Below the pieces are notes generated by a model. It was not told the origin of the DNA. It ran no database searches and worked only from the letters and a program-made list of their open reading frames with translations. Position numbers and translations under genes: made by a program. A stretch of 64,000 bases of DNA from Pirellulales bacterium (GTDB taxonomy: Bacteria; Planctomycetota; Planctomycetia; Pirellulales; UBA1268): contig JBAVTF010000102.1 of the NCBI GenBank assembly GCA_049695995.1, forward strand, positions 5,189 to 69,188, in the 5' to 3' direction. Positions 14,660 through 39,569 of the stretch are shown here, piece after piece (positions within the stretch are counted from its first letter, which is position 1; each line of letters opens with the position of its first letter).

Positions 14660-15952
14660 TCACTCCGGCAGTTCGTAGCCCGCGATCGCCATCTCCATCG
14701 CGGCCCGGACAGCGGCCTTCGCCAACGGCTTGTCGTGCAGCCAGGCGGCGAACTGCTCGCCGTGGGCGGCATAGGCCGTCTGCAGCCAGCTCGGAGCCTC
14801 CGTGAGCATCCAGGCCCGGAACACGAGCCACCGCGGGTCGTCCACGCCGTAGGCCTCGCGGGCCGTCCAGCAGAAGAACGTGCCGAACGGCACCGTGAGC
14901 GTCCGTACCATGCTCGAGCCGAGCAGGGTGAAGCCAAACATCCGCTCGAAGGGAGCCGTGATCTTGCCCACGATGCTGTCGAAGGCGACCCACGAATCCT
15001 GGGCGATGAACACGCGGTCACCCGGCAGGATCTGGTAGTTGGTGGCGGTCGCGCCCCCCTTCATGATCGACTCGATGTCCACGGGCAGGATCTGATCGCA
15101 GCCCACGCCCGAGGGGGCCGGCCGGGCGATCCAGATGTCCTTGCTGGAGAGCTTGGAGAGGCCGTTGATCTGGGCGATCGCGTCGAGCACGGTCTCGTTG
15201 CCCGTCACGGGGAAGCGGGCCACGTTGTCGCCGAAGCCCGCCCCTTCGGTCACCACGTAGTAGACCTTCGAGTTGTACGAAAACACGTCCACGCTCACGA
15301 GCGGCGCGTCGAGATACTGGCCAAGGTGCTGCTCGATCTTGGCCTTCGCCTCGTTGAGCGTCAGGCCCGTGATGTAGACACTCCCGTACGTGCCGAGATT
15401 GATCGTGCCGTCGGGGCCCACGAGGTGCTCGCCGGCGATCTGCTGCTGGCCAGCGGCCTGGGCGAGCGTGAGCGATACCTGCGGCTCGCGGAGGATTCGC
15501 TTCAGGTGGCGGAAGATCGAATCCTGAGCTTCTTCGAGCGACTGATTGCCCACCATCACCTTGCCGTAGGAGGGACCGAGGTCGAGCATGCCGCCCGGCT
15601 CCACCACGTAGATGCCGTTGATGGGCTGCTCGAGGAGCGTGCCTTCCACGATGACCTGCAGCGAATCGAACGACTGGATCCGGAAGGGCGGCTTGGGCAC
15701 GACGCGGAGCGCGTCCACGAGCAGGATGTCGGGCGGCTCGATCACATAGGCCGGCAGGGACACTTTCGCCAGTTCCTTGGCCGGCATCCGGCTCGGGTCG
15801 GTCGGCGGGCAGTTGGCCTGCTCCGACACCCGCTGGAAGTGCGACCGCTGCGGCCGGCCGTAGATGGACGTGCAGCCGGCGGACGAGAGCGTCGCGGCCA
15901 GGGCCACGAGCGTCACCGCCACCCGATTGTTTCGCGCTGCAAACCAGCCCAT
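14660..15952 (-). CDS. Wza-like polysaccharide export lipoprotein (Poly_export + SLBB domains) with C-terminal extension
   Basis: Lipobox (LAATLSSAGC), a Poly_export-type motif (YVIEPPDILLVDAL), and SLBB-like repeats (VGPDGTINLGTYGSVYITGLTLNEAKAKIEQHL; FPVTGNETVLDAIAQ). About 100 extra C-terminal residues. Confidence 0.85.
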   Translation of the reverse strand: MGWFAARNNRVAVTLVALAATLSSAGCTSIYGRPQRSHFQRVSEQANCPPTDPSRMPAKELAKVSLPAYVIEPPDILLVDALRVVPKPPFRIQSFDSLQVIVEGTLLEQPINGIYVVEPGGMLDLGPSYGKVMVGNQSLEEAQDSIFRHLKRILREPQVSLTLAQAAGQQQIAGEHLVGPDGTINLGTYGSVYITGLTLNEAKAKIEQHLGQYLDAPLVSVDVFSYNSKVYYVVTEGAGFGDNVARFPVTGNETVLDAIAQINGLSKLSSKDIWIARPAPSGVGCDQILPVDIESIMKGGATATNYQILPGDRVFIAQDSWVAFDSIVGKITAPFERMFGFTLLGSSMVRTLTVPFGTFFCWTAREAYGVDDPRWLVFRAWMLTEAPSWLQTAYAAHGEQFAAWLHDKPLAKAAVRAAMEMAIAGYELPE

Positions 15953-16145
15953 GCTCACACTCCCTGCGACCGGCATAGTCGCTGCGATCGGGAGTATCGG
16001 CAGATTCCGGCCGCAAACTTTGCCCGGCCTGCCTTCCAGACACGGTTCGGCGAAAAACCCGGCGGCCGGCCCGGTAGGTGGGGCGACTTGGGCGAAAACC
16101 GGGCGTAAACTTGCGTTTCAGAGAGGGTTCTCGAAGGGTCTCTGC

Positions 16146-16715
16146 GTGCCCATCCTCCCCAAACAGTGCGATTTCTATCCTGCCGACCTGCTTGACCTTC
16201 CGGCGAGTCAGGACGCCGGCGGGCCGGAGGCCACCCGCTGGCTCGTCTTCTACACACTCGCCCGACGCGAGAAAGACCTGATGCGGAAGCTGGAGGCGGC
16301 CCACATCCCGTTTTACGGGCCGATGATCCGCCGCCGGCTGCGATCCACCGGGGGCAAGACCCGCTCCTCCTACGTTCCGCTTTTCCCAGGCTACGTATTC
16401 TCACGCGTCGACGACGAGCAGAGGCGGGCGGCGTTGGCCACCAACACGATCGCCCGCTGGATTCCCGTCGGCGACGAGCGAATGCTTGTCAGCGACCTGC
16501 GGGCGATCCGGCAGCTCATCGACAGCGATCAGCCGCTCACTCCCGAGGCCCGACTGGAGCCAGGGCAGCCGGTCCGCGTGCGAACCGGGCCGCTCAAGGG
16601 CATCGAGGGCGTGGTGATCCGCCGGCGGGGCGAGGAGCGGCTGCTCGTGGCGGTGCGGTTCCTGAATCAGGGCGCGTCGATCGAACTGGAAGACATCGAC
16701 CTCGAACCGCTGTAG
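16146..16715 (+). CDS. specialised NusG paralog (RfaH/UpxY/LoaP-like antiterminator)
   Basis: NGN-like N-terminus (WLVFYTLARREKDLMRKLEAAHIPFYGPM...YVPLFPGYVFSR) and a KOW motif (GQPVRVRTGPLKGIEGVVI). GTG start at 16146, because no ATG lies upstream of the NGN domain. First gene of the sugar operon. Confidence 0.75.
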   Translation: MPILPKQCDFYPADLLDLPASQDAGGPEATRWLVFYTLARREKDLMRKLEAAHIPFYGPMIRRRLRSTGGKTRSSYVPLFPGYVFSRVDDEQRRAALATNTIARWIPVGDERMLVSDLRAIRQLIDSDQPLTPEARLEPGQPVRVRTGPLKGIEGVVIRRRGEERLLVAVRFLNQGASIELEDIDLEPL

Positions 16716-16731
16716 TGGAACGGAATCCCGA

Positions 16732-18699
16732 ATGATCGCACGTCTCACGTCAGCGGTGGTCGCGAAGCTCGAGGAGTGGTGGCGCGCGCGGCTGCCCACC
16801 CGCGAAGCGATCGTCGTCACGGCGCTGCTCGCCCTCATCTTCGAGGGCACGTATCTGGCCTCGTTCTTCATCCGCAGCGAACTGCTGCTGAAGGGCTCCG
16901 ACGCCCAGGCGATCCTTAACACGATCGTGGCCGTCGTCAGCCTGAAGCTGCTCGTCTTCTACTGGCGGGGCTTCTGCCACAAGCCGTGGCGGGCCGCCCG
17001 ATTCGCCGATTTGAACCGTCTCTTGCGGGCCGCCACGACGTGCCTGCTCGTATTCGTGGCCCTCAACTATTTCAGCGGCTACATCCCGGGCTGGATCCAG
17101 ATCCCGCGGTCGGTGCTGCTCCTCGACTGGGCCTTCACGCTCCTCGCTGTCGGCGGCATGCAGGCTGTCGCCCGCAGCCTCTACGAAGAGATCATGCCGA
17201 CCACCACCGTGGGCAACCAGAAGACGGTGCTCGTGATCGACGCCTCGCCGGCCGGTCGTGAGCTGGCCGCAGCGCTCGGCCAGCTCAACTCGCGGGGCTA
17301 CTTCGTGGCGGGACTGCTCGACGACGATCCCGACACCTACGGCCTGAACGTCGGGCGGGCCCGCGTGCTCGGACCCGTGCTGATGGCACCGGCCTGTGCC
17401 CAGCGGCTGCGGGCCTCCGAGATCGTGGTCCGCGAGGGAGCCATTTACGGGGCGCGGCTACGGGAGCTGTGCGACGCTTGCGCCGAGATCAACGTGCGGG
17501 TGTCGATCGCCGAGAACGTCACCGATCCCGACCTGTCGGCCGGCAGCCAGCCGACTACGGTTCAGCCGCTCGTCGTCCGCGCCCTCGAGCTTCGCGACCT
17601 CCTCTCCCGCCCCCAGGCCCGGCTCGATGACCACGACATCCACGTCTATCCGTTCCTGCATGGCAAGACGGTGCTCGTCACGGGTGCCGGCGGCTCGATC
17701 GGTTCGGAAATCTGCCGGCAGCTGCTGCGGTTCACGCCAGCGCGGATCGTGCTCGTGGAACGGTCGGAGGCAAGCCTGTTCGCGATCCACCACGAGCTGG
17801 TGCAGTCTGCCACGCTCGGCTCCACCGACCTGGTGCCGATCCTGTGCGACATCTCCCACGTCGATCGGGCCGAGCGGCTGTTCACCGACCACCGGCCGCA
17901 GGTCGTGATCCACGCGGCGGCCTTCAAGCACGTGCCGCTGATGGAGGCCCACCCGGTCGAGGCGATCGAGAACAACGCGCTGGCCACCGCCGCGCTGGCC
18001 GAACTGGCCGACGCACATGCCGTCTCAACGTTCGTCGCCCTCTCCACCGACAAGGCCGTCCATCCGTCGAGCGTGATGGGAGCGTCGAAGCTGGTGGCCG
18101 AGCGGTTCCTGCAGTCGTTCGGTGAGACGTCGACCACGCGGTTCGTGGCGGTGCGGTTCGGCAACGTGATCGGGTCGAGCGGCAGCGCCGTGCCGATCTT
18201 CACCGAGCAGCTCACCAAGCGGCTGCCGATCACGATCACGCACGAAGACGTGCGGCGGTATTTCATGACGATCACGGAGGCGGCGCAGCTCGTGCTCCTG
18301 GCCGGGGCCCTGCCTGGACGTGGCGGCACGTTCGTGCTGGAGATGGGCGAGCCGATTCGGATCGTGGAGCTGGTGTCGAGTCTCGCCTACGTGCTGCACG
18401 TGCCGCCTGAGCAGGTGCGGATCCGGTATTGCGGGCTGCGGCCCGGCGAGAAGCTCGACGAGGAGCTGTTTTTCGAAGACGAGCGGCGGGAGGCCACGTC
18501 GCATCCGCTGGTGATCCGGGCGGTCCGCGCGGCCCGGCCGCTCGACGAGGTGCGGCAGTGGATGGGTGAACTGAAGAGCGCGGTGTCCGGCCCGTCCGAG
18601 ACGGCCGGCCATACGCTCATGGACATCGTCACCAGCGATTGCAGCAGCCTCGTGCCTGTGGAGGCACCGGTGGGTCAGCCAGTGGAGCAACGCGCATGA
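16732..18699 (+). CDS. membrane-anchored NDP-sugar 4,6-dehydratase (CapD/WbpM/PglF family)
   Basis: Four N-terminal TM segments, then VLVTGAGGSIGSEICRQLL and STDKAVHPSSVMGASKLVAE (the Met-for-Tyr variant typical of PglF/CapD). Confidence 0.9.
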   Translation: MIARLTSAVVAKLEEWWRARLPTREAIVVTALLALIFEGTYLASFFIRSELLLKGSDAQAILNTIVAVVSLKLLVFYWRGFCHKPWRAARFADLNRLLRAATTCLLVFVALNYFSGYIPGWIQIPRSVLLLDWAFTLLAVGGMQAVARSLYEEIMPTTTVGNQKTVLVIDASPAGRELAAALGQLNSRGYFVAGLLDDDPDTYGLNVGRARVLGPVLMAPACAQRLRASEIVVREGAIYGARLRELCDACAEINVRVSIAENVTDPDLSAGSQPTTVQPLVVRALELRDLLSRPQARLDDHDIHVYPFLHGKTVLVTGAGGSIGSEICRQLLRFTPARIVLVERSEASLFAIHHELVQSATLGSTDLVPILCDISHVDRAERLFTDHRPQVVIHAAAFKHVPLMEAHPVEAIENNALATAALAELADAHAVSTFVALSTDKAVHPSSVMGASKLVAERFLQSFGETSTTRFVAVRFGNVIGSSGSAVPIFTEQLTKRLPITITHEDVRRYFMTITEAAQLVLLAGALPGRGGTFVLEMGEPIRIVELVSSLAYVLHVPPEQVRIRYCGLRPGEKLDEELFFEDERREATSHPLVIRAVRAARPLDEVRQWMGELKSAVSGPSETAGHTLMDIVTSDCSSLVPVEAPVGQPVEQRA

Positions 18700-19823
18700 C
18701 AGCTGGCTGGCGGGTGCCGTTCGTACGGCCCGATGTGCCGGCGTATGCGGAGGTGAGCGCGGCGATCGAGCGGGCCGTCTCGAGCGGCATGCTCACGAAG
18801 GGGCCGGAGCTAGCGGCGCTCGAGGCCGAGGCGGCGGCGGCGCTCGGTGTGCGGCACGTCGTCGGCGTGTCGAGCTGCACGATCGGCGTCGCGCTCGTGC
18901 TCAAGGCGATCGAGCCACGCGCGGGCCGTACGGAAATCATCCTTCCGAGCTTCAACTTCCTCGCGGCGCCCGGCGCCGTCGTGTGGGCCGGGTTCACGCC
19001 GGTATTCGTCGAGGTCGATCCCCACACGTTCACGATCGACCCCGCCGCGGCCGCCGCCGCGGTCACCGACCGCACGGCCGCGATCATGGCCTGCCACACG
19101 TTCGGCTGCCCGTGCGACGTGCCCGCCCTCGACGCGGTGGCCGTGCGGGCGGGCGTGCCGCTCGTCGTCGATGCCGCCCACGGCCTCGGCACGCAGCTGC
19201 AGGGTCGACAGGTGGGGGCCGGCGGACTCGCGCAAATCTTCAGCCTCTCCCCCACGAAGCTCGTCGTCGCAGGTGAAGGGGGCCTCGTGGCCACCGACGA
19301 CGACGCGCTCGCCGCCGCGGTCCGCACCGCCCGCGAATATGGCAACGACGGCCACTACGGCTGCGCGGTGCCCGGCCTCAACGGCCGGCTGCCCGAGATC
19401 TCCGCGATCCTGGCCCGGGCATCGCTGGCCCGGCTGCCAGACGTGGCCGCCCGCCGCCGGGCCGCGGCCGAGGCCTACAACGCGGAACTTACCAACCTGC
19501 CCGGTGTCGGCCTGCAGCGGATGCCCCCGGGGGCCACGAGCAGCTGGAAGGATTTCGTGATCACGATCGATGCGGAGCGGTTCGGCATGAGCCGCGACGC
19601 CGTTCGCCGCCGCCTGGCCGATGCGGGCGTCGACACGCGGGCGTATTATGATCCGGCCTGCCACCAGATGGAGGCGTTCCGCCGCTACGCGAGGCCGGGG
19701 CAGTCGCTGCCGATCACCGACCACCTCGCCGCCACGGCGTTGGCGCTGCCCCTCGGGGCGCATGTCACGGCCGACGTGGCACGGTCGGTGGCCCACGTGA
19801 TCCGCGCCGGCGCCCGCTCATGA
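18696..19823 (+). CDS. DegT/DnrJ/EryC1/StrS (PglE-like) PLP-dependent sugar aminotransferase
   Basis: PLP-lysine context IFSLSPTKLVVAGEGGLVATDD. ATGA overlap with the upstream dehydratase. Confidence 0.9.
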   Translation: MTAGWRVPFVRPDVPAYAEVSAAIERAVSSGMLTKGPELAALEAEAAAALGVRHVVGVSSCTIGVALVLKAIEPRAGRTEIILPSFNFLAAPGAVVWAGFTPVFVEVDPHTFTIDPAAAAAAVTDRTAAIMACHTFGCPCDVPALDAVAVRAGVPLVVDAAHGLGTQLQGRQVGAGGLAQIFSLSPTKLVVAGEGGLVATDDDALAAAVRTAREYGNDGHYGCAVPGLNGRLPEISAILARASLARLPDVAARRRAAAEAYNAELTNLPGVGLQRMPPGATSSWKDFVITIDAERFGMSRDAVRRRLADAGVDTRAYYDPACHQMEAFRRYARPGQSLPITDHLAATALALPLGAHVTADVARSVAHVIRAGARS

Positions 19824-20962
19824 AACCCGTCGAACAGCCAAACCTCTTCCCGTCGTTCGACTCGATCGAGGCGGTGCTCTGGCCGGCGGCCGCGCTGGCC
19901 GTGTTCGTGCTCACGGCGGTGCTCGTCGATCTCATGGTCATCCTCGCCGCGCGGTGGCGGCTGGTCGATCTCCCCAACCGCCGCAGCGCCCACGCGCTGC
20001 CCACGGCCCGGGGCGGCGGACTGGCGATCGTGCTCACGACGGCGCTGGCCTCGATCATGGTGGCGCTGCGGTGGCCCCCGGCCGCGTTTGCGATCCTCGG
20101 GGGCGTGATCGTCCCCTGTCTCGTGATCGCCGGGGTGGGGATCGTCGACGACATCCAGCCTCTCAAGGCGTCGCTGCGGCTGTTCATCCAGATCGGGGTC
20201 GCCGCGGCGATCACGGCCGCACTCGGCCCGCTCTCCACGATCGCGATCCCGGGGCTGCCGGTGCTCGAACTGGGCTGGGCGGGCTGGCCGCTCACGGTGG
20301 TCTGGATCGTGGGCATGACCAACGCCTTCAACTTCATGGATGGCTCCGATGGCATGGCAGCGCTCGGGGCCGTCGTGGCGGGCGTGGTGATGGCGGTGAT
20401 CGGCTGGCAACTGCGGATCCATCTCCCGCTGCTCCTCGCCGCCTTCGCGGCGGCGGCGGCGGGTGGATTCCTGGTCTTCAACTGGCAACCGGCCCGCGTC
20501 TTCATGGGCGACGTGGGCAGCGCGTTTCTGGGCACCTATCTGGCTGCGGTACCGCTGGCGTTTCCAGAGCCGCAGCGATCGCTCGTGTTCATTCCGATGG
20601 TGTTGGCACTGTGGCCCTACATCTTCGATCCATTCGTTTCGGTGCTGCGGCGAATCTACCACCGAAAGAGCCCGTTCGAGCCTCACCGAGAGTTCTTGTT
20701 CCATCGCCTGATCCGCAGCGACATCGGCCACGGGTTCGCGGCGCTGCTCTATGCGATGCTGGCATTGACGGGCGGGCTCGTGGGCATCCTGATGGTCGAG
20801 AATCTGCTGCCCGATGCAGTGCGGGCCTGCGGTCCGCTCGTCGTCATCGCGCTGGCGGGCGTACTGGCGTGGGCGATCGAGCGGCGGTGCACGCTCGTTG
20901 GGCTGCCGTCGGCGAGTGGAGCCGTCGCCGCGTCGGCGGCCGAACCGTCCACCACGGCCTAA
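19820..20962 (+). CDS. polyprenyl-phosphate HexNAc-1-phosphate transferase (MraY/WecA/WbpL family, GT4)
   Basis: Polytopic protein with NAFNFMDGSDGMAA and VFMGDVGSAFLG motifs. ATGA-coupled to the aminotransferase. Confidence 0.85.
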   Translation: MKPVEQPNLFPSFDSIEAVLWPAAALAVFVLTAVLVDLMVILAARWRLVDLPNRRSAHALPTARGGGLAIVLTTALASIMVALRWPPAAFAILGGVIVPCLVIAGVGIVDDIQPLKASLRLFIQIGVAAAITAALGPLSTIAIPGLPVLELGWAGWPLTVVWIVGMTNAFNFMDGSDGMAALGAVVAGVVMAVIGWQLRIHLPLLLAAFAAAAAGGFLVFNWQPARVFMGDVGSAFLGTYLAAVPLAFPEPQRSLVFIPMVLALWPYIFDPFVSVLRRIYHRKSPFEPHREFLFHRLIRSDIGHGFAALLYAMLALTGGLVGILMVENLLPDAVRACGPLVVIALAGVLAWAIERRCTLVGLPSASGAVAASAAEPSTTA

Positions 20963-20984
20963 GAAGTGACAAGGGCTTTCGACC

Positions 20985-21659
20985 ATGGCTGCGACGTCGC
21001 GCGCGAGTGAGGCCTTGCCACGGGAACCACACGGGTGGTATCCGACGGTCGTGAAGCGCGGATGCGACCTCATCGTGGCGGCTGCGCTGGTCGTCCTGCT
21101 CGCGCCGCTGATGGCGGCGGTTGCGCTGGCCGTGCGGCTCGTGCTCGGGCGGCCGGTCTTCCATCGCGACATGCGGGCCGGGCTCCACGGAAAACCTTTC
21201 GAGATCGTGAAGTTTCGGTCGATGGCCGAGCGGGTGGACGACGCCGGTCGGCTCTTGCCCGACGAACAGCGGCTCGGACTCTTCGGCCGGTGCCTGCGGG
21301 CCACGAGCCTCGACGAACTGCCGCAGCTGGTGAGCGTGGTACGCGGCGAGATGAGCCTGGTGGGGCCGCGTCCTCTCCCACTTCGCTATGTTGCCAGATA
21401 TTCGCCCCGACAGGCCACGCGGCTGCTCGTCCGGCCGGGACTCACCGGCTGGGCCCAGATTCATGGCCGAAACGCCCTCGACTGGGGCCCGAGGCTGGAA
21501 TATGACGCCCGCTACGTGGAAATTCTCGGGCGGTGGCATGCCCCGCTGGCCGATTGCTGGATCATTGTGGTCACCCTGCTCCAATTGATCGTTCAGGCCG
21601 TCACCGGCCGCGGCGTGGCGGCGCCCGGCTCGGCCACGATGCAAGAGTTTCAACCGTGA
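20985..21659 (+). CDS. small monotopic phosphoglycosyl transferase (bacterial sugar transferase, PglC/WbaP C-terminal type)
   Basis: KRGCDLIVAAALVVLLAPLMAAVALAV re-entrant helix, then KFRSM, DELPQLVSVVRGEMSLVGPRP and RPGLTGWAQIHGRN. Confidence 0.9.
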   Translation: MAATSRASEALPREPHGWYPTVVKRGCDLIVAAALVVLLAPLMAAVALAVRLVLGRPVFHRDMRAGLHGKPFEIVKFRSMAERVDDAGRLLPDEQRLGLFGRCLRATSLDELPQLVSVVRGEMSLVGPRPLPLRYVARYSPRQATRLLVRPGLTGWAQIHGRNALDWGPRLEYDARYVEILGRWHAPLADCWIIVVTLLQLIVQAVTGRGVAAPGSATMQEFQP

Positions 21660-21919
21660 GTCCGTCCGACGCCGTCGCCGACGCCATCCGCACCGTGCTT
21701 CGCGAGACCGGCCGCAGCCGCGATGCGATCGAGCCGCAGCAGCTGCTGGCCGCCGATCTCGGTCTCGACTCGCTCGACCTCGCGCAAGCGATCGTGCTCC
21801 TCGAGCGATCGCTCGGCGTCGATCCATTCCGCGACTGGTCCGCCGCCGCGCCGCGGCCGGCCGTCCGCACCGTCTCCGATCTCGTTGCCATCTACACGAC
21901 AGCCCTCGCCTCACCCTGA
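21656..21919 (+). CDS. acyl carrier protein
   Basis: 87 aa with the phosphopantetheine attachment motif LGLDSLDLAQ. The GTG start overlaps the upstream stop (GTGA). Confidence 0.8.
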   Translation: MSPSDAVADAIRTVLRETGRSRDAIEPQQLLAADLGLDSLDLAQAIVLLERSLGVDPFRDWSAAAPRPAVRTVSDLVAIYTTALASP

Positions 21920-21932
21920 GAGATTCAGCGCC

Positions 21933-23294
21933 ATGCACGCCACGCTCGACACGCTGCTCGATCATCTCGCCGAAGCCCCTGCCGCCGAGCGGCTCGCCGT
22001 CGCGATCACGGAGATCGCCAGACAGTTTCCCGACCGCGTCGCGATCGTCGCCCAGGCCGGCACCGATGCCCGTCGCGTGATCGACTACGCGACGCTCGCG
22101 ACCGCGGTCATGAAGCTCGAAGGGGAGCTGGAGGTCAATCGGCCCGTGGGCGTGGTGGCCCGGGCGGTGCGGCCGGAGTCGCTCGCGGTGATCACGGCCG
22201 CCTGCGGTCGGCAGCGGGTGCCGCTGGCGTTCGTCTCGCCCGATTCGCAGGCGCTCGCCGGCGAGCTGCACGACTGGGTGGCGATCGACGACAGCCTCGC
22301 CCTGCCTGTCAGCTCGGGCCGCCGCGGCGATCTCGACTCGGTGCCGCCGCCGGTGATCGTGGCCACGAGCGGCACGAGCGGGCCGCCGAAGCTCGTCGAT
22401 CATGCCTGGGATTCGGTGCTCGCCGCCGCCCGGCTCTCGGAGCAGTGGCACGGGCTCGGCTGGCTCATGGTCTACGACGCGGCCCGGTGGGCGGGCATCC
22501 AGGTGTGGGTGCAGGCGTTGCTCACGGGAGGTCGGCTGGTGGTGCCGGCGTCGCGAGATCCCGACGTGGTGGCCCTCGCGCTCGTCAACGAGTCGGTGCA
22601 GGTGATGCCGGCCACGCCCACGCTCTTGCGGCGGCTGCTGACGTCGGCCGATCGCAGCGTGCTCTGCCGCGGCCAGGTCGATCGGATCACGCTCGGCGGC
22701 GAGGCGGCCGATGCCCAGCTGTTGAACGATGCCCGTGCCTTCTATCCGCAGGCGAAGATCACGCAGGTCTATGCCACGACGGAGCTGGGCGAGGTGTTTC
22801 GCGTGGCCGACTGCAAGCCGGGGTTTCCGGCCAACTGGCTGGGCAAGGCGCTGCCCGGCGGCGCGCGGCTGGCCACTCGGCGCGACGGCGAATTGCTCGT
22901 GCAGCTCTCCCGCGACACCGCGGAGGTGGGCACGGGCGATCTCGTGGAGCGACGTGGCGACCGCTACGAGTTCGTGGGCCGGCGGACCGACGTGATCATC
23001 GTGGGCGGCGCGAAGGTCTTCCCGAGCCGGGTGGAGGAAGTGCTCCGCGGCGTGCCGGGGATCGCAGAGGCCCGCATCTACGGGCTGCCGAGCGCGATCA
23101 CGGGCGAGCTGGTGGCCGCGGAGATCGTGCTGGCCGATCCGCTGCCGGATGCCGCCACGCCGGAGAAGGTGCGGGCGGCGGCCCTCACGGCCTGCCGCGA
23201 GCAGCTGGAGCCCCAGGGCGTCCCGCGGATCCTCGACATCGTGAAGAAAATCGCCACCACCGCCGCCGGCAAAACCCCCCGCAGTCGGCCGTAA
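21933..23294 (+). CDS. AMP-dependent synthetase/ligase (acyl-ACP/CoA ligase-like)
   Basis: AMP-binding motif VIVATSGTSGPPKLV, plus YATTELGEV and a C-terminal AAGKTPR lysine. Confidence 0.85.
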   Translation: MHATLDTLLDHLAEAPAAERLAVAITEIARQFPDRVAIVAQAGTDARRVIDYATLATAVMKLEGELEVNRPVGVVARAVRPESLAVITAACGRQRVPLAFVSPDSQALAGELHDWVAIDDSLALPVSSGRRGDLDSVPPPVIVATSGTSGPPKLVDHAWDSVLAAARLSEQWHGLGWLMVYDAARWAGIQVWVQALLTGGRLVVPASRDPDVVALALVNESVQVMPATPTLLRRLLTSADRSVLCRGQVDRITLGGEAADAQLLNDARAFYPQAKITQVYATTELGEVFRVADCKPGFPANWLGKALPGGARLATRRDGELLVQLSRDTAEVGTGDLVERRGDRYEFVGRRTDVIIVGGAKVFPSRVEEVLRGVPGIAEARIYGLPSAITGELVAAEIVLADPLPDAATPEKVRAAALTACREQLEPQGVPRILDIVKKIATTAAGKTPRSRP

Positions 23295-23315
23295 GCCGCA
23301 TGCCCATCACTCCCC

Positions 23316-23393
23316 GTAGGCCCGTCACGCCGCGTGGGTCCGTCACGCGGTGACGGACATCCCCGTTTACCGGTCACGGCGTGACCGGGCTAC
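23316..23393. repeat. composite palindromic element (GTAGGC half-element plus CCGGTCACGGCGTGACCGGGCTAC module)
   Basis: GTAGGCCCGTCACGCCGCGTGGGTCCGTCACGCGGTGACGGAC...CCGGTCACGGCGTGACCGGGCTAC. Sits between the ligase stop and the SDR start. Confidence 0.7.
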
Positions 23394-23397
23394 CGTC

Positions 23398-24180
23398 ATG
23401 CCCACGACCATCATCTCCGGCGGCTCCCGCGGGCTTGGGCTCGCCCTCGTGGAGCGGCTGCTTGCCCGCGGCGATACGGTCGCCACGTTCTCCCGCGCGG
23501 GATCTCCGGCACTCGATGCCCTCGCCGCGGCCCACGCCGACCGGCTGTTCACCGCTCGCGTCAATGCCGCCGACAGTGCCGCGATTCGCGGCTTCGTCGA
23601 GCAGGCTACGACGCGGTTCGGCCGCATCGACCACTGCATCGCGAATGCGGCGATCGCCCACGAGGGCGTGCTGGCGGTCACGAGCGACGCGGCGATCGAC
23701 GACATGCTCGCGATCAACCTCAAGGGCTCGATCGTGCTCGTTCGCGAATGTGTCCGCCAGATGCTCGTGCAGGCGAGCCCGTCGCACCCCGGAGGGCCGT
23801 CACGCCGTGACGGGCAGTCCGTTGCGGAGCAACCGACCGACAACCTGTCGATCACGGTCATCTCCTCGGTGGTCGCCTCCCGGGGCTCGCCGGGCCTCGC
23901 GGTCTACGCGGCCACGAAGGCGGGGCTCGAGGGCTTTGCCCGCAACCTCGCCCGCGAGTTGGGGCCGCGGGGCATCCGCGTCAACGCCGTAGCGCCGGGG
24001 TTTCTGGAGACGGAACTCTCGGCCTCGCTGTCCCCGGAAAACCGCAGTCGCATCGCCCGCCGCACGGCGCTCGGCCGCCTCGGCCGGCCGGCCGACATCG
24101 TGGGCGCGGTGGAGTTTCTGATGAGTCCGGCGGCGGCGTTCATCACGGGCCAGGTGCTCGCGATCGACGGCGGGGCCTGA
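23398..24180 (+). CDS. short-chain dehydrogenase/reductase (FabG-like 3-oxoacyl reductase) carrying an internal repeat-derived insert
   Basis: TIISGGSRGLGLAL cofactor motif, NAAI, and catalytic VYAATKAGLEGF. Start set at the ATG at 23398, downstream of the repeat element. Confidence 0.8.
   Translation: MPTTIISGGSRGLGLALVERLLARGDTVATFSRAGSPALDALAAAHADRLFTARVNAADSAAIRGFVEQATTRFGRIDHCIANAAIAHEGVLAVTSDAAIDDMLAINLKGSIVLVRECVRQMLVQASPSHPGGPSRRDGQSVAEQPTDNLSITVISSVVASRGSPGLAVYAATKAGLEGFARNLARELGPRGIRVNAVAPGFLETELSASLSPENRSRIARRTALGRLGRPADIVGAVEFLMSPAAAFITGQVLAIDGGA
23791..23841 (+). repeat. 51-nt degenerate GTAGGC-family palindromic element inside the SDR CDS, in frame
   Basis: GGAGGGCCGTCACGCCGTGACGGGCAGTCCGTTGCGGAGCAACCGACCGAC has the same core as 14103-14153, with diverged termini. 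Confidence 0.7.
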
Positions 24181-24186
24181 TGTGCA

Positions 24187-24205
24187 CCGCACACGGAGTG
24201 TGCGG
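24187..24205. terminator. GC-rich hairpin between convergent genes
   Basis: CCGCACAC-GGA-GTGTGCGG. No U-tract follows, so the terminator role is tentative. Confidence 0.3.
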
Positions 24206-24255
24206 ACTACGGTTGCATGGGCGCACCCTCGCCCGCCGGTATGATCTCCGTGGAT

Positions 24256-24276
24256 GTGCAGACTGGCAGTCTGCAC
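24256..24276. repeat. perfect 21-nt palindrome GTGCAGACTGGCAGTCTGCAC
   Basis: 10+1+10 palindrome read directly, 10 nt downstream of the stop of the minus-strand epimerase gene. Confidence 0.5.
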
Positions 24277-24285
24277 ACCGCCCGC

Positions 24286-25341
24286 TCAGGCGCGGGTGCG
24301 GTGGGCGGCGATGATTTCGTCGAAGGTCTGGCCGAGGGAGATCTCCGGCGTCCAGCCCGGATAGTCGGCCATCATCCGGCGCAGGTCGGAGTAGTAGCAG
24401 ATGTGGTCGCCCGCGCGGGCTTGGTCGGAATAGACCCAGTCCATCGGGTTGCCGCTCCGCTCCGCCACCATCTGGAAGGCTTCAAGAATCGAGCAGCTGT
24501 TCGTCTTGCCGCCGCCGATGTTGTACACGGCCGCGGGCCTCGGAGCCGCGATGAACCGCGCGATGAAGGCCGCCACGTCGGCGGCGTGGATGTTGTCCCG
24601 CACCTGCTTGCCCTTGTAGCCGAATACGGTGTACCGCCGGCCTTCGAGGTTGCACTTCACGAGGTAGCTCAGGAAGCCGTGCAACTCCACGCCCGAGTGC
24701 GACGGCCCGGTGAGGCAGCCGCCCCGCAGGCAGCAGGTCGGCATGTCGAAGTAGCGGCCGTATTCCTGCACCATCACGTCGGCGGCCACCTTCGAGGCGC
24801 CGAAGAGCGAGTGCTTGCTGGCGTCGATCCGGAACGTCTCGGGGATGCCGTGGGTGTAGGCCGGGTCGGCGTAGTCCCAGCGGGTCTCGTGCTCCACGAG
24901 CGGCAGTTCGTTCGGGGCGTCGCCATACACCTTGTTCGTGCTCATGTGCACGAACGGCGCCTCCGGCGCGAACCGCCGGGCCGCCTCGAGCATGTTGAGC
25001 GTGCCGACGGCGTTGGTGTCGAAGTCGTCGAACGGGATGGCCGCCGCCCGGTCGTGCGACGGCTGGGCCGCGGTGTGCACGATCGCTGTCGGCCGCACCT
25101 CTTCGATGAGCCGCAGCACGCCGGCCCGGTCGCGAATATCGAGCTCGTGGTGGGTGAACGACCGCAGGCTCGCGGCGAGCCTGTTTTGATTCCAGCGGGT
25201 GTCGCCGGCAGGGCCGAAGAAGACAGCCCGCTGGTTGTTGTCCACACCGTGCACGGCCCAGCCGGCGGCATCGAAGTGCGTGGCCACCTCGCTGCCGATG
25301 AGGCCCGACGAACCGGTCACGAGCAGAACGCGTGCAGACAT
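24286..25341 (-). CDS. extended-SDR NAD-dependent sugar epimerase/dehydratase (CDP-tyvelose 2-epimerase-like architecture)
   Basis: [15 protein letters not shown] Rossmann motif and MSTNKVYG. The expected YxxxK position reads FGASK. Confidence 0.8.
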
Positions 25342-25413
25342 GGAGTCGCTCCCTTTGGCTCCGTTATCTGACCGGATATCCGCGGAGATTCAACCCTGCG
25401 GCGTTCCCCAAAT

Positions 25414-25465
25414 CACCTAGTCTGTAGGCCCCGTTGCTCCGCAACGGGCTGCCCACCACGGAGTG
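25414..25465 (-). repeat. 52-nt GTAGGC...GCCTAC palindromic element (inverted orientation)
   Basis: The reverse complement, GTAGGCCCGTCACTCCGTGGTGGGCAGCCCGTTGCGGAGCAACGGGGCCTAC, is near-identical to 14103-14153. Lies in a divergent promoter region. Confidence 0.8.
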
Positions 25466-25511
25466 ACGGGCCTACGGCCACGCTCGCAACGTACACTGGT
25501 TTCCTTCCGCC

Positions 25512-26213
25512 GTGCCCTCCCTCTGGACTTTCCGCCGGGATGCTTGTTCCGTGACTCACCCCTCGCAGCTCTCCGTGCAACGCATCGTGATCGTCGGCGC
25601 CGGCGGCTTCGGCCGGGAAGTCCTGCAGTGGGCCCGCGCCGCCTGGCCCGAGGCAGCAACGCACATCGCCGGTTTTCTCTCGGCCGATCCTCGCATCCTC
25701 GCGGGCCACGCCTGCCCGCTGCCTGTCATCGGCGATCCGGCCACTTTCGAGCCGGAGCCGGAAGATGGCCTCCTCTTGGCGATCGGGATTCCCTGCATCC
25801 GCCGCCGCGTAGCCGAGCTGCTGCTGGGCCGGGGCGCCGAGTTTCTCACGCTGATTCATCCCACCGCAATCGTCGTGCCCACGGCGCGGATCGGCACGGG
25901 AGCGATCGTCTGCCCGCAGGCGATCGTGAGCGACTCCGCCACGCTTGGCCGGTTCGCGCTCGTCAACTACCACGCATCCGTGGCCCACGACGCATCCGTG
26001 GGCGACTTCGCCGTGCTCTCGCCGTATGCCACGCTTGCGGGCGGGGCCCACGTGGGCGACGACGCATTCCTCGGCCTCCACGCTTCCGTCGGCCCGGGCG
26101 TGAGCGTCGGCCCGCGGAGCAAGGTGGCTGCGAACTCGTGTGCCCTCGCCGACACCCCAGCCGACTCGCTCGTGCACGGCGTGCCGGGCCGGATCACTCC
26201 GCTCCTCAGCTGA
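25512..26213 (+). CDS. NeuD/PglD-family left-handed beta-helix sugar N-/O-acyltransferase
   Basis: IVIVGAGGFGREVLQWA N-terminal domain followed by hexapeptide repeats (IGTGAIVCPQAIVSDSATLGRFALVNYHASVAHD...). An alternative GTG start lies at 25575. Confidence 0.85.
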   Translation: MPSLWTFRRDACSVTHPSQLSVQRIVIVGAGGFGREVLQWARAAWPEAATHIAGFLSADPRILAGHACPLPVIGDPATFEPEPEDGLLLAIGIPCIRRRVAELLLGRGAEFLTLIHPTAIVVPTARIGTGAIVCPQAIVSDSATLGRFALVNYHASVAHDASVGDFAVLSPYATLAGGAHVGDDAFLGLHASVGPGVSVGPRSKVAANSCALADTPADSLVHGVPGRITPLLS

Positions 26214-26239
26214 TCGCGAGCGACGCGTGCCAGGCTGCT

Positions 26240-26812
26240 CTACCAAATGGTCGCGAGTGGCACCTGGAGCGACCCGCCAAGTGCTGTGGCTGGGTCGGTT
26301 GGCGGCTCGAGCCGGTATAAGCCGTCCACCAATCGATACCGCTCGAGCTTTTGGTTCTCAGGATCCGCAATCCAATACTCGACAACTCCCGTTCGCTCGT
26401 AGAGTTGCTTCTTCAAGTCGGTGTCATGAGACGCCGTGGACGGCGAGAGGATCTCGACGACCAGGTCCGGCACTCCGTTGATCTTCGTCGGCGTGATCAT
26501 CCGAGCCCGATCCTTCAGCACGACGATCAGGTCTGGCTGGACGATGTCGTAGTCGGTGAGTTGCACATCGCAGGGCGCGTCGAATACAAGCCCAAGACCG
26601 GCAAGTTCGATCTGTGTGTACAGCTGATACTGAAGCCGCTTCGACACCGTCTGATGGGTCGTGGATGGTGCGGGGGTCACGTAGTGGTCTCCGTCGATGA
26701 TCTCGTGCCGCCGTCCGTCGTTCGGCAGGCAGCAGTACTCGCGGTACCCGAACCGCGTGCGCGGCCGCGCGACCGGTTGGCTCGACGACGATGGGCTGAT
26801 GTCGGTGGACAT
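26240..26812 (-). CDS. Uma2-family (DUF820) putative endonuclease
   Basis: HEIIDGDHYVTPAP, QPDLIVVLKD, PDLVVEILSPST and YERTGVVEYWIADP motifs. GGAGG Shine-Dalgarno about 8 nt upstream. More AT-rich than the flanks. Confidence 0.85.
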   Translation of the reverse strand: MSTDISPSSSSQPVARPRTRFGYREYCCLPNDGRRHEIIDGDHYVTPAPSTTHQTVSKRLQYQLYTQIELAGLGLVFDAPCDVQLTDYDIVQPDLIVVLKDRARMITPTKINGVPDLVVEILSPSTASHDTDLKKQLYERTGVVEYWIADPENQKLERYRLVDGLYRLEPPTDPATALGGSLQVPLATIW

Positions 26813-31388: not shown

Positions 31389-33300
31389 TTATCTCCCGAG
31401 CTCATGGCTAGAACGTATCCCATCAAATATTGGATCCAAGTACGGCGCGAGTGCCCTGGCGGCTGTGGCTGAGATATGGTTGTCGTCGCTGTATGCACAC
31501 GCCCCATCTACCAACAGACTGCTTTCGCTTGCCTTTCGCAACAGTGCCGCGACATCCAGATACGAAACGCGCTCGTTCGTGAGTCGCTGAAACAACAGAG
31601 CAATCGGCTCTGTCGCTGTTGCGAACTCCTCCTGGCTCACCGGGCGAACATCTTGCCATCCAAACAGCTCGTGCAGCGCCAGCTGCTTCGGCACATTGAA
31701 CCGCTGACTCGGCACTTCTTCCAGGATCCATACTCGCTCAACGCCGGCATTCAATACCGTAGTGATCGTTTCCGAAAGCGCCTTTGCCAGACACTGCTCC
31801 TTCTCTGTTGCATTGGTCGCAGGTTTTCCGTCGCTCCCGCAGTTCCACGTCATGAGGCCACTCCACCGTGCCGCCAGCACAACGCACGCCGGCCGTTCCC
31901 TCTGGAGATAAGCAACCGCGGCATCGCGGAACGCCCAATTCGGACCGTTGGCGCCGGGTGCATTCATGTGCAATCCAACAAGCGGCGGGGTCGCGCCGCG
32001 GGTGAGCGCTACACCCGACGCACGGTGGTCAAACGCGGCCTGATCGAACGCTGGCACAAGGGCATCGGCATGGCTGTCGCCCCACAACACAAAATCGGGT
32101 CTCGTGTCGCCATCCCTGCGACCAAGTCGCGGCATTTTGCCGTTTTGAATAATCCGAATCGGAAGATTGATCGTCTCCGCACGTCGCGGCTGCCAGTCGG
32201 CCATCCCCTGACTGAGCCGAACCACCTGCGGCGGTAATCGCTGCGGGAGCCCGCCTGTCCTATGCATGAGAAGTCCGCACACCGCCGTCGCGACTCCAGC
32301 AACAGCCCAGCTACCGAGCACGCGGCCGTCTGGCCAGCGGATTCCGCGGCCGGGCGTCTCCACAAACCGAAAAGACAGCCACGCAACGACGAGGGAGATG
32401 AGCCCGACCACATACGAGATCACCACGGAACACGAGCCGGCCATGCCAGACCACGGATAGCGAGCAAGCGTCAGTAGCGGCCAATGCCAAAGATAAAGGG
32501 AGTACGAAATCAACCCTGTCCATACGAGCCACGGCGAGGCCAGGAGCCGCTGCCACCCCGATGAAGAGCCCGCGGTAACGATGATGAGCCCTGCGGTTCC
32601 GCACACGGGAACCAACGCCGCCCACCCAGGAAACACCGATTGCTCCGAAAGGGCTGCCATTGGTGACAGAACACATGCCATCGACACCAGCCCAAGCCAC
32701 CCGCTCAACCCGGCAGAAACCACTGCCCTCGACGGGACGATCGCACACATCGCACCCGCGAGCAGCTCAAATGACCGACTCGGCAGTAAGTAATACGCGG
32801 ACCGGGCGTCGTGACCGCACTGCCAGACGCTCAAGCCAAAAGAGAGGAAAAACAAGGCTACGAACACCGCCGCCTGAATCAGCCGTGGGCGCTTTGCAAT
32901 CGCAACGACGAGCCATGGAAAAACCAGATAGAACTGCTCTTCGACAGCAAGGGACCACGTGTGCAAAAGCGGCCACGAGCGATGCGCCAAGGTCTTTCAA
33001 GTCGCGAGGCAGGAATATCGCACCGGCGAGGAGCGTTACGATCGCCGACATGACCGCAGCAGCAGGCAAAAGACGCCGCACGCGTCGGGCATAAAATCTC
33101 GTGAATGAGACCGCCCCTTGCGATGCTTCGCGCAGCAAGATCGAAGTGATCAGATAGCCCGAGATCACAAAAAACACATCGACGCCGACGAAGCCGCCAG
33201 GGAGAATCCGACTGTCAATGTGATTCGCGACGACCGCGAGAATGGCGATGCCCCTCAACCCATCGATCTCTGGTCGGTAATGAGGTGTCGGCGGGGTCAT
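31389..33300 (-). pseudogene. acyltransferase-3 (OafA-like) with C-terminal SGNH domain, disrupted by frameshift and apparent internal deletion
   Basis: The N-terminal part (RPEIDGLRGIAILAVVANH...DVFFVISGYLIT...FYARRVRRLLPA) and the remainder (LLHTWSLAVEEQFYLVFP... plus an SGNH-like tail) lie in different frames, joined near 32960-33000. Confidence 0.6.
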
Positions 33301-36114: not shown

Positions 36115-36394
36115 CTTCTCCCACGGCCACCACGATACCAGCCGGCTGGCCGGCGCCGACGAACGCCCTTGGCAAAATCGCCGGGGCGCATGATTTCCAC
36201 GGCAACTGCCGTATACTCCCTACAAGAATGAGGTGCGCAGCCGGGAACTGGCGCGGGACGCCTGCAGACACGCCGACACCGACGGGAACGGAGTACGCCT
36301 CAACTCACCCCCTCTTTGTAGCGTGTCGCGATGTTGGGCCCGGCATATGCCTGATGCCACACTCAGCTCTCACGAACCCCTCAGCTGCTCTGCC

Positions 36395-37180
36395 ATGAAA
36401 GTCGTCATCCTCTGCGGTGGCAAAGGTACGCGGCTCCGCGAAGAAACGGAGTATCGCCCGAAGCCCATGGTCCCGATCGGCGGCAAGCCGATTCTCTGGC
36501 ACATCATGAAGACCTATGCCCATTACGGGCACAAGGAGTTCATTCTCTGCCTTGGCTACAAGGGGGAGATGATCAAAGACTTCTTCCGCAACTACATGTG
36601 GGCAACAAGCGATGTCACCATGAAACTCGGCCGCGGATCGTCGGTAACGTTTCATGACCACGTCGATGAACTCGACTGGACCGTGACGCTCGCCGACACG
36701 GGCGAAGACAGCATGACGGCCTACCGTATCCGGCGAATCGAGCGATACCTGGGGGATGACGACACGTTTCTTCTCACGTACGGCGACGGCGTGGGGAACA
36801 TCGATATCACGGGCTCGATCGCCTTTCACCACGAGCACCGTCGTGCCTGCACGCTCACCGGCGTCCATCCTCCAGGGCGGTTCGGCGAATTGGGCATCGG
36901 TCAGAAGTCCGAAGTTACGCACTTCAATGAGAAGCCGCAGTCCGAGGGCGGCTATATCAACGGCGGCTACATGGTCTGCGACCGGAGACTCTTCACCTAT
37001 CTCCCGGACGATCCGAGCATGATGCTTGAACGGCAGCCAATGAGCGACATGGTTCGCGCCCGCGACTTGGCCGTGTTCCGCCACAATGGTTTTTGGCAGC
37101 CAATGGATACGTTCCAGGAATTGGTCCTTCTCAACCAGTTGTGGTCGAACGGCAAGGCGCCTTGGAAGGTGTGGCCATGA
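36395..37180 (+). CDS. rfbF: glucose-1-phosphate cytidylyltransferase
   Basis: MKVVILCGGKGTRLREETEYRPKPMVPIGGKPILWHIMKTYAHYGHKEFILCLGYKG is the characteristic RfbF/DdhA N-terminus. Confidence 0.9.
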   Translation: MKVVILCGGKGTRLREETEYRPKPMVPIGGKPILWHIMKTYAHYGHKEFILCLGYKGEMIKDFFRNYMWATSDVTMKLGRGSSVTFHDHVDELDWTVTLADTGEDSMTAYRIRRIERYLGDDDTFLLTYGDGVGNIDITGSIAFHHEHRRACTLTGVHPPGRFGELGIGQKSEVTHFNEKPQSEGGYINGGYMVCDRRLFTYLPDDPSMMLERQPMSDMVRARDLAVFRHNGFWQPMDTFQELVLLNQLWSNGKAPWKVWP

Positions 37181-39566: not shown

Positions 39567-39569
39567 CCA

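Follow-up and report, generated by a model that had tools for sequence, protein, structure and literature searches.

Carrier-protein modules that are private to a glycan locus and feed an acyltransferase of the NeuD/VioB/PglD family are a known kind of system, and two of them provide the closest glycan precedents for the locus described here. The viosamine island of Pseudomonas syringae pv. tabaci (vioA, vioB, vioS, vioR, acp, vioM and vioT) contains an acyl carrier protein (ACP) and a β-ketoacyl-ACP synthase III (KAS III), and N-(3-hydroxybutanoyl)viosamine is lost when vioR or vioB is mutated (PMC3927599). In Flavobacterium psychrophilum (wfpC–wfpG), the product has the known structure Qui2NAc4N(3,5-dihydroxyhexanoyl), and WfpG is predicted to take the 3,5-dihydroxyhexanoyl group from the ACP WfpD (PMC6519341). 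Outside glycans, hydroxyacyl 'priming cassettes' have been described for mupirocin (MupQ/MupS/MacpD, Pseudomonas fluorescens; product, an omega-hydroxyacyl-ACP) and for thiomarinol (the counterpart TmlQ/TmlS/TacpD) (Walker et al. 2020, as cited in PMC10098928); the thiomarinol priming unit is 4-hydroxybutanoyl. Here we describe a bacillosamine-type sugar operon with an embedded three-gene carrier-protein cassette from an uncultured freshwater planctomycete (Pirellulales bacterium, NCBI GenBank assembly GCA_049695995.1), located in a stretch of 64,000 nucleotides of contig JBAVTF010000102.1 (positions 5,189 to 69,188; this whole stretch is hereafter called the window). The cassette consists of an ACP, an adenylating ligase and a short-chain dehydrogenase/reductase (SDR), hereafter the trio, and the locus appears to be a variant of the known kind of system in which a ligase and a MupS-type reductase take the place of the ketosynthase route.

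Compared by description, the viosamine island resembles the planctomycete locus in N-hydroxyacylating a 4-amino-4,6-dideoxyhexose with a NeuD/PglB/VioB-family acyltransferase and a private ACP and reductase. It differs in making its donor via KAS III (vioS) without a ligase, where the planctomycete locus has a ligase instead, and in placing deoxythymidine diphosphate (dTDP)-viosamine on flagellin, without a 2-acetamido group and without PglC-type priming. The F. psychrophilum genes are closer in sugar type, being bacillosamine-type (PglF/PglE homologs) with a PglD homolog (WfpG) and a locus-specific ACP (WfpD), but their acyl chain is assigned to two ketoacyl-ACP synthases and a ketoreductase, without an adenylating ligase, these roles being predicted. 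A private ACP, a reductase and a NeuD/VioB/PglD-type transferase near a 4-aminotransferase, as in KAS III-type modules, were all found in the planctomycete locus, and no ketosynthase or KAS III homolog was found on the window's contig (C102); the acyl chain is therefore not expected to be built by condensation here. The Campylobacter jejuni PglF–PglE–PglD–PglC pathway is similar in that PglF and PglC are the best solved matches of their planctomycete counterparts and in its PglD-family acyltransferase with a catalytic His. The planctomycete locus is unlike it in having the embedded trio, an extra WecA-like transferase and an aminotransferase nearest to DesI, and its acyl donor, unlike that of the C. 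jejuni pathway, is probably not acetyl-coenzyme A (acetyl-CoA).

The sugar half of the operon was mapped, like the rest of the window, from third-position G+C content (GC3) and Pfam/NCBIfam family scans. A PglF-type, membrane-anchored 4,6-dehydratase for uridine diphosphate (UDP)-N-acetylglucosamine (UDP-GlcNAc) at positions 16732–18699 (plus strand, as are all genes here unless stated; Polysacc_synt_2, E = 6e-98) has C. jejuni PglF as its top Protein Data Bank (PDB) match (5bju, E = 1.9e-67) and retains the motif STDKAV, which aligns with STDKAV of PglF. It is followed by a sugar C-4 aminotransferase of the DegT/DnrJ/EryC1 family (18639–19823, start uncertain; PF01041, E = 1e-93). The monotopic phosphoglycosyl transferase (20985–21659; Bac_transf, E = 1e-49) matches PglC over its full length (8e37, E = 1.7e-44) and retains the Asp-Glu dyad, in SLDELPQL. 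The PglD-like hexapeptide N-acyltransferase (25512–26213, start uncertain) belongs to the NeuD/PglB/VioB family (TIGR03570, 169.6 bits against a cut-off of 160.8), with PerB (4ea7, E = 9e-25), VioB, WeeI, the acetyltransferase domain of Neisseria PglB and PglD as its closest solved relatives; its H159-D160 pair is invariant among 21 orthologs, and H159 aligns with the catalytic His of PerB (mutated in 4eaa). For PglF, PglC and PglD, both the catalytic motifs and the family matches of the pathway to N,N'-diacetylbacillosamine (diNAcBac) were thus recovered by sequence tests.

An earlier reading of this DNA (the original prediction) had proposed a bacillosamine-type gene set with an ACP, a ligase and a reductase between the PglC-like and acyltransferase genes, and both this gene set (PglF-like, PglC-like and NeuD/PglD-like genes, all on the plus strand with matching motifs or families, together with a DegT aminotransferase) and the position of the trio, which recurs in about 30 loci, hold. 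Its PglE-like aminotransferase is indeed of the DegT family, but the closest solved sugar aminotransferase is DesI (2po3, the top PDB match, E = 1e-64), and PglE is absent from the PDB matches at E ≤ 1e-40. The named genes are all present, and two had to be added to its map: a WecA/MraY-family polytopic phosphoglycosyl transferase, the second initiating-type enzyme of the operon (19820–20962; Glycos_transf_4, E = 2e-36), and a minus-strand epimerase/dehydratase (24286–25341). We also moved the ligase start from 21723 to 21933.

The trio occupies positions 21656–24180 as an adjacent discrete ACP, ANL-superfamily enzyme and classical SDR, the last of MupS/TmlS type. The dedicated ACP (21656–21919, 87 amino acids (aa); PP-binding, E = 2e-5) starts at a GTG that overlaps the PglC stop codon and carries the motif GLDSLD, which, with DPFR, is invariant across 21 orthologs; two phosphopantetheinyl-transferase genes lie elsewhere in the same genome. 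The ligase (21933–23294) is a short ANL enzyme of 453 aa with AMP-binding and AMP-binding_C domains, the P-loop TSGTSG and the C-terminal Lys447, and has no paralog in its own genome at E ≤ 1e-8. Its AlphaFold2 model is of high confidence (predicted local distance difference test (pLDDT) 94.3), and a fold search with the model returned only generic ANL folds at 16–23% identity (PchD, MatB, luciferase, DltA), from which no substrate can be inferred. Membership in the exosortase A-associated acyl-CoA ligase family (TIGR03098) was ruled out (49.1 bits against a cut-off of 592.35). The SDR (23398–24180, 260 aa) keeps the catalytic Asn/Ser/Tyr/Lys.

The nearest characterised relative of the trio, judged by homology, is the mupirocin/thiomarinol priming cassette. 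The SDR's top PDB match is MupS (4yxf, E = 2.8e-50, 174.5 bits), with the best FabG at 131.8 bits and FabGs at 3e-37 or weaker, and a plasmid protein search with the SDR led to pTML1 (NC_015708.1) of Pseudoalteromonas sp. SANK 73390, on which genes for a ligase, an SDR and an ACP adjoin a ketosynthase-type polyketide synthase (PKS) gene. All three planctomycete proteins match their thiomarinol counterparts: the ligase matches TmlQ (29% identity over 310 aa, E = 8e-35, 122 bits), the SDR TmlS (40% identity, E = 2e-57) and the ACP TacpD (32% identity, E = 5e-8). A quick maximum-likelihood tree grouped TmlS and a PKS-linked Burkholderia SDR with all of the trio SDRs in a single clade of 46 rows (Shimodaira–Hasegawa-like approximate likelihood ratio test support, 93), and the genome's own SDR paralogs (≤34% identity) fell outside it. 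The two settings differ in gene order (ligase–SDR–ACP on pTML1, ACP–ligase–SDR in the planctomycete) and in the consumer of the product: a ketosynthase (MmpF/TmpF) uses the hydroxyacyl-ACP in mupirocin and thiomarinol biosynthesis, whereas the planctomycete trio neighbours an N-acyltransferase. No paper connecting a glycan ACP–ligase–SDR module with the mupirocin cassette was found in the literature searched, and searches for N-hydroxybutyryl pseudaminic acid or bacillosamine made by a characterised route with an ACP and a ligase gave nothing relevant.

The trio and its neighbours are conserved as a unit among close relatives. PglC, ACP, ligase, SDR and NeuD share 56–77% identity with about 30 loci of related freshwater planctomycete (Pirellulales-type) metagenome-assembled genomes (MAGs), and ligase relatives at 70–96% identity come from Planctomycetaceae, Pirellulales and Planctomycetia MAGs, many of them from lakes. 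In about 30 loci, the full series reads Wza (divergent), NusG, PglF, DegT, (WecA), PglC, ACP, ligase, SDR, NeuD, with about 60–75% identity for the arrangement as a whole; because this order recurs in about 30 independent loci, the arrangement is not due to chance. Beyond these, the same five genes of the acyl half occur in a distant locus (L018/L071) at 36–48% identity. The Wza-like polysaccharide export protein (14660–15976, minus strand; Poly_export, E = 1e-21) is divergent from the operon and in the same position in related loci, and the operon's first gene is a NusG paralog resembling UpxY/RfaH (16146–16715, start approximate; NusG Pfam match), which scores 80.8 bits for the UpxY family, under the cut-off of 100, and is 60–73% identical across related loci. 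Most related loci carry the WecA-like gene, either once or twice (it is duplicated, for example, in L003), and it was not detected in L045–L047, L051–L053, L055, L058 and L060, which keep PglC–ACP–ligase–SDR–NeuD; from this non-detection, we consider it dispensable for the acyl module. Two classes of relatives can also be told apart by PglF and DegT (L001, L022, L026 and L028 versus L003, L025 and L036), with PglF at ~41–44% versus 62–71% and DegT at 48–52% versus 56–64% identity to the window, such that the amino-sugar half may vary while the acyl half stays.

Co-occurrence follows the same lines. Among 41 family genomes, whose counts are descriptive only since the genomes are relatives, 33 yielded the ligase and 24 the NeuD ortholog (59–72% identity); every one of the 24 NeuD carriers has the ligase, none of the 8 ligase-free genomes has a NeuD ortholog, and 9 of the 33 ligase carriers lack one, some of these being contig-end cases. 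Conservation across the phylum was considered and rejected: a sample of 400 other Planctomycetota genomes gave one weak match, and orthologs are confined to the window's own family. That match consists of domains (31–32% identity) within frames of 9551 and 3848 aa (G098:C65:90718-91638 and G098:C154:54597-55517), which are presumably megasynthases of the PKS or non-ribosomal peptide synthetase type. Two local duplications were also seen within the family: a 6.7-kb block is in tandem duplicate at L049, and genome G548 has two ligase copies 6 kb apart.

Outside the Planctomycetota, ligase relatives at 33–45% identity were found in Acidobacteriota, Nitrospirota, Verrucomicrobiota, Myxococcota, Actinomycetota, Alphaproteobacteria and Gammaproteobacteria, and in such loci the SDR nearly always lies 3' of the ligase, with the ACP 5' of it in most. 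Three classes of context were observed: the setting of the window, with a PglC-like gene ahead of the trio and a PglD-like gene behind it (L018/L071), L016, L061 and L087 being flanked by NeuD-like genes on both sides; pseudaminic-acid genes, in Vibrio sinaloensis and Azospirillum brasilense; and, at no fewer than 14 loci, a CE4 polysaccharide deacetylase gene upstream together with a downstream gene for a weakly GNAT-like protein of ~380 aa, in many cases accompanied by a GT2 gene. Most hosts of the third class are Acidobacteriota; one is an alphaproteobacterial and one an actinomycete MAG. Its GNAT-like loci include L062, L063, L066, L072, L075, L076, L078, L079, L082, L084, L085, L091 and L097, and CE4 is present in all but L097. 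By analogy, this arrangement resembles the 'de-N-acetylate, then re-acylate' logic of NodB/NodA.

In the second class, the V. sinaloensis CECT 7298 operon (L096, 3433–11578) encodes PseB, PseC, PseF, PseG, ACP, ligase, SDR, a PseH-like GNAT (88 bits, slightly under the cut-off of 93) and PseI, from which a non-acetyl N-7 group is predicted, and on plasmid p3 of A. brasilense Sp7 pseI and a flagellin gene flank the trio, and a KAS III gene comes next. Similar annotations have been reported in Aeromonas group II flagellin glycosylation islands (ACP, 3-oxoacyl-ACP reductase and AMP-dependent synthetase, orf1–3) and in Enterobacteriaceae islands (Acp/CaiC/FabG), which also carry luxC and luxE and for which the authors proposed a 'liposugar' without a functional test (PMC7874193, PMC4875605). 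Likened by annotation only, these trios, which adjoin pseH in pseudaminic-acid loci, match the Vibrio and Azospirillum loci. In Aeromonas piscicola AH-3, such genes lie beside pseH and the pseudaminic acid derivative has a mass of 376.14 Da, which is 60.02 Da above the 316.13 Da calculated for Pse5Ac7Ac; an increment of this size would be explained by exchanging two acetyl groups for hydroxypropionyl or one acetyl group for dihydroxybutyryl.

Because PglD-like, PseH-like GNAT and ~380-aa GNAT-like genes all recur beside the trio, its usual neighbour is an N-acyltransferase of some fold, and the theme common to these contexts appears to be N-acylation of an amino sugar or a de-N-acetylated sugar. 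That the trio is an acyl-donor module, as the original prediction had proposed, is thus supported by the conserved synteny, by the three N-acyltransferase folds beside it and by the finding that, in the 41 family genomes, the NeuD ortholog was never found without the ligase. Two more specific proposals fared worse: the reductase called FabG-like is MupS-like instead (174.5 versus ≤131.8 bits), and the analogy with the tetronate module of Vibrio cholerae O1 gives way to the mupirocin/thiomarinol cassette as the nearest characterised relative. In that module (rfbK-L-M-N-O), an ACP and an adenylating ligase serve the N-acylation of a 4-amino-6-deoxy sugar; compared by description, the planctomycete locus differs from it in that neither an iron alcohol dehydrogenase nor a LuxC/LuxE-type partner was found among the window genes scanned.

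From gene content, motifs, homologies, synteny and co-occurrence we infer a pathway whose every chemical step, ACP (rather than CoA) donor and acyl identity are predictions. A PglF-type dehydratase would convert UDP-GlcNAc to the UDP-4-keto-6-deoxy sugar, from which the DegT aminotransferase would form the UDP-4-amino sugar (UDP-4-amino-4,6-dideoxy-N-acetylhexosamine). In parallel, the ligase would adenylate a carboxylate and load it onto the phosphopantetheine arm of the private ACP, and the MupS-type SDR would reduce what has been loaded, yielding a hydroxyacyl-ACP. The homology with MupQ/MupS/MacpD and TmlQ/TmlS/TacpD makes a route from the free carboxylate of malonyl- or succinyl-CoA to 3-hydroxypropionyl- or 4-hydroxybutyryl-ACP the likeliest one. 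The NeuD/PglD-family enzyme would then move the acyl group from the ACP to N-4, and the PglC-type enzyme would place the completed sugar phosphate on polyprenyl phosphate, where it would be the starting sugar of a surface glycan. The predicted product is a lipid-linked 2-acetamido-4-acylamino-2,4,6-trideoxyhexose with a short hydroxyacyl group, not acetyl, on N-4.

Transfer to N-4 by the NeuD-like enzyme from an ACP-borne, short hydroxyacyl donor is, on the comparative evidence, the most likely reading, and an ACP-borne donor is favoured because the synteny is conserved and because none of the 24 NeuD orthologs was found without the ligase. A predicted fold of the NeuD trimer with the ACP adds weak support (score 0.39, against 0.00 for the best of three controls): 58 of 80 solved complexes pass the mark, as do 2 of 110 mismatched pairs, and those that pass it with a score of 0.60 or less are only 7 of the 80 solved complexes together with both of the passing mismatches. 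In this fold, runs agreed in at least 81% of contacts and the partner pLDDT was at least 80. Overall, we put the probability of ACP-borne, non-acetyl N-acylation at roughly two in three; the narrower proposal of an omega-hydroxy C3 or C4 group made by a MupQ/MupS-like route falls somewhat short of probable.

Several observations weigh against this pathway or parts of it. The trio members of glycan loci are known from sequence alone, and the PglD-family enzymes of solved structure take acyl-CoA donors. One genus has the trio amid housekeeping genes, and in three of its four genomes a NeuD ortholog was not found. The copy in the present genome, which may still be functional, is possibly less efficient, because a minus-strand gene interrupts the operon and the SDR carries a 21-aa insert. 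The ligase shares just 29% identity with TmlQ, and there are nine positions (W177, R233, V291, D293, G297, F298, P299, R344 and F347) that never vary among the 26 aligned ligases from glycan loci and those of Azospirillum and Vibrio, and that all differ in TmlQ and the PKS-context Burkholderia ligase, such that, as far as can be judged from sequence, the ligases split by context, glycan versus PKS. Several of these positions fall in the A4 and post-A5 regions, which line the acyl pocket in ANL enzymes, and the activated acid may therefore differ from that of TmlQ; some of the nine could instead reflect the ACP partner. As for the acyl group itself, the common non-acetyl N-acyl group on bacillosamine in known glycans is 3-hydroxybutanoyl (PMC8074265), and N-(3-hydroxypropanoyl) sugars were not found in the literature searched; amino sugars with an N-(4-hydroxybutanoyl) group are known from Idiomarina abyssalis, according to a reference in PMC8074265.

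The housekeeping context seen in that genus (L043, L049, L050, L054 and L015; genomes G603, G612 and G621) places the trio next to genes for the Der GTPase, a Gfo/Idh/MocA oxidoreductase, an IF-2B-family isomerase and a 3'-phosphoadenosine-5'-phosphosulfate (PAPS) reductase.

The first alternative to be weighed retains the ACP-borne donor and changes the acid: the ligase would load a free β-keto or other keto acid (for example, acetoacetate) and the SDR would act as a plain ketoreductase, giving a sugar with 3-hydroxybutanoyl, or a comparable 3- or 2-hydroxyacyl group, on N-4. In the pocket region, the glycan ligases have a signature unlike that of TmlQ, which permits a different free-acid substrate, and the SDR retains the FabG-type catalytic residues and still matches FabGs at about E = 1e-36, yet it is clearly nearer to MupS/TmlS than to any FabG. 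The trio also spans many phyla, yet free acetoacetate, to our knowledge, is not a universal metabolite. The product would be the usual one, 3-hydroxybutanoyl being the common non-acetyl group on QuiNAc4N (PMC8074265), but the genetically tested 3-hydroxybutanoyl system makes it with KAS III, a reductase and an ACP and without a ligase (PMC3927599). On balance, we consider a keto-acid substrate unlikely.

Less probable again is that the NeuD-like enzyme is an ordinary acetyl-CoA-dependent PglD, making plain diNAcBac, and that the trio feeds another acceptor (another transferase, O-acylation or a lipid). The annotation of the solved PglD, PerB and VioB relatives as acetyltransferases points this way, as do the 9 of 33 family genomes that have the trio without a NeuD ortholog, the genus with the trio in a non-glycan neighbourhood, and two AT3-family acyltransferase genes in the window (31389–32990 and 49142–50320). 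Against it, no NeuD ortholog was found without a ligase (0 of 24), the acyltransferase lies 3' of the trio in about 30 loci and in distant L018, and in other phyla the trio's neighbour is again an N-acyltransferase, of other folds. Very improbable, finally, is a ligase that loads an amino acid in the manner of DltA/DltC or AlmE/AlmF to give an N-aminoacyl sugar, perhaps modified by the SDR: N-aminoacyl amino sugars do occur in nature, the ligase core has a weak partial match to TIGR01733 (64.5 bits against a cut-off of 317) and DltA is one of its many fold matches, but the A4-motif aspartate that binds the alpha-amino group in amino-acid-activating ANL enzymes is found at position 182 in just 11 of 26 ligases, a lack of conservation that argues against an aminoacyl group, and both the MupS-like SDR partner and the homology with TmlQ (122 bits, against ≤62 bits for any solved adenylation domain) stand against it as well.

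Within the SDR of this genome's own copy, the in-frame, repeat-derived insert of 21 aa (~23770–23840) lies in a variable loop preceding the strand with the catalytic Ser, where orthologs differ in length, and its core, a palindromic element of 37 bp, is present in the genome in 50 copies or more. GC-rich palindromic repeat elements, seen by direct reading of the sequence, also lie in the 103-bp spacer between ligase and SDR (23295–23397). The NAD-dependent epimerase/dehydratase gene on the minus strand (24286–25341; Epimerase, E = 9e-42) separates the acyltransferase gene from the rest of the operon; it scores below every NCBIfam cut-off, is flanked by the same repeat family as the SDR insert, and was found between SDR and NeuD only in this genome among the loci compared, other genomes having small inserted genes (for example, toxin–antitoxin-like pairs) in the ligase–SDR and SDR–NeuD spacers. 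A plus-strand open reading frame (ORF) at 24217–25371 was rejected as a shadow ORF because it has no Pfam or NCBIfam match and overlaps the minus-strand gene, whose frame has a GC3 of 0.91. A promoter and terminator scan of 23200–26400 gave no signal exceeding the shuffled background.

Composition changes downstream of the operon, from ~68% G+C up to ~26 kb to ~60% beyond. The lower-G+C stretch from 26 to 36 kb contains a Uma2 nuclease gene, unknown ORFs, a truncated AT3-SGNH acyltransferase gene, a methyltransferase gene and a GT2 gene. It is followed, from 36 to 62 kb, by a long same-strand glycan gene set that includes a nucleotidyltransferase, two nucleotide diphosphate (NDP)-sugar SDRs, a C-methyltransferase, a split transketolase pair, two GT2 proteins, a fused membrane–ATPase ATP-binding cassette (ABC) exporter, FkbM and other methyltransferases, six GT4 proteins, an AT3 acyltransferase and two Wzy_C proteins. 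Its first part (36233–42216), with the nucleotidyltransferase, a 4,6-dehydratase-like SDR, the C-methyltransferase with a zinc-binding domain, the second SDR and the split transketolase pair, suggests a branched-chain or C-methylated deoxy sugar. The fused ABC exporter (44493–46265) and the two Wzy_C proteins (50248–51786 and 59479–61389) lie in the same strand run as the six GT4 genes, and a polymerase, a ligase and a protein O-oligosaccharyltransferase are all candidate functions for the Wzy_C proteins. For the finished glycan, an exopolysaccharide, an O-antigen-like chain and a protein-linked glycan are the candidate forms.

Antigenicity and recognition by phages and the immune system are decided by the N-acyl groups that bacillosamine, viosamine and nonulosonic acids carry, and of the non-acetyl groups only a minority have been traced to genes. 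Through its characterised relative MupQ/MupS/MacpD, an annotation that would read 'ACP, ligase, FabG' becomes a concrete, testable reaction scheme, and the presence of the same module in the culturable V. sinaloensis CECT 7298 and A. brasilense Sp7 makes the prediction testable without growing the planctomycete. More speculatively, and in our view doubtfully, the glycan trio may be a widespread, multi-phylum system for the N-acylation of amino sugars that draws on malonyl- or succinyl-CoA and supplies omega-hydroxyacyl groups (3-hydroxypropionyl or 4-hydroxybutyryl), working with at least three unrelated acyltransferase folds, with the mupirocin/thiomarinol cassette as its polyketide offshoot. 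If so, it would give a genetic basis to orphan N-acyl groups such as the 4-hydroxybutanoyl of I. abyssalis and perhaps the 376-Da pseudaminic acid of A. piscicola AH-3, and N-(3-hydroxypropionyl) bacillosamine, of which we found no example in the literature searched, would be expected. For the planctomycetes themselves, the locus, conserved across most of the family, probably sets the first sugar of a major surface glycan.

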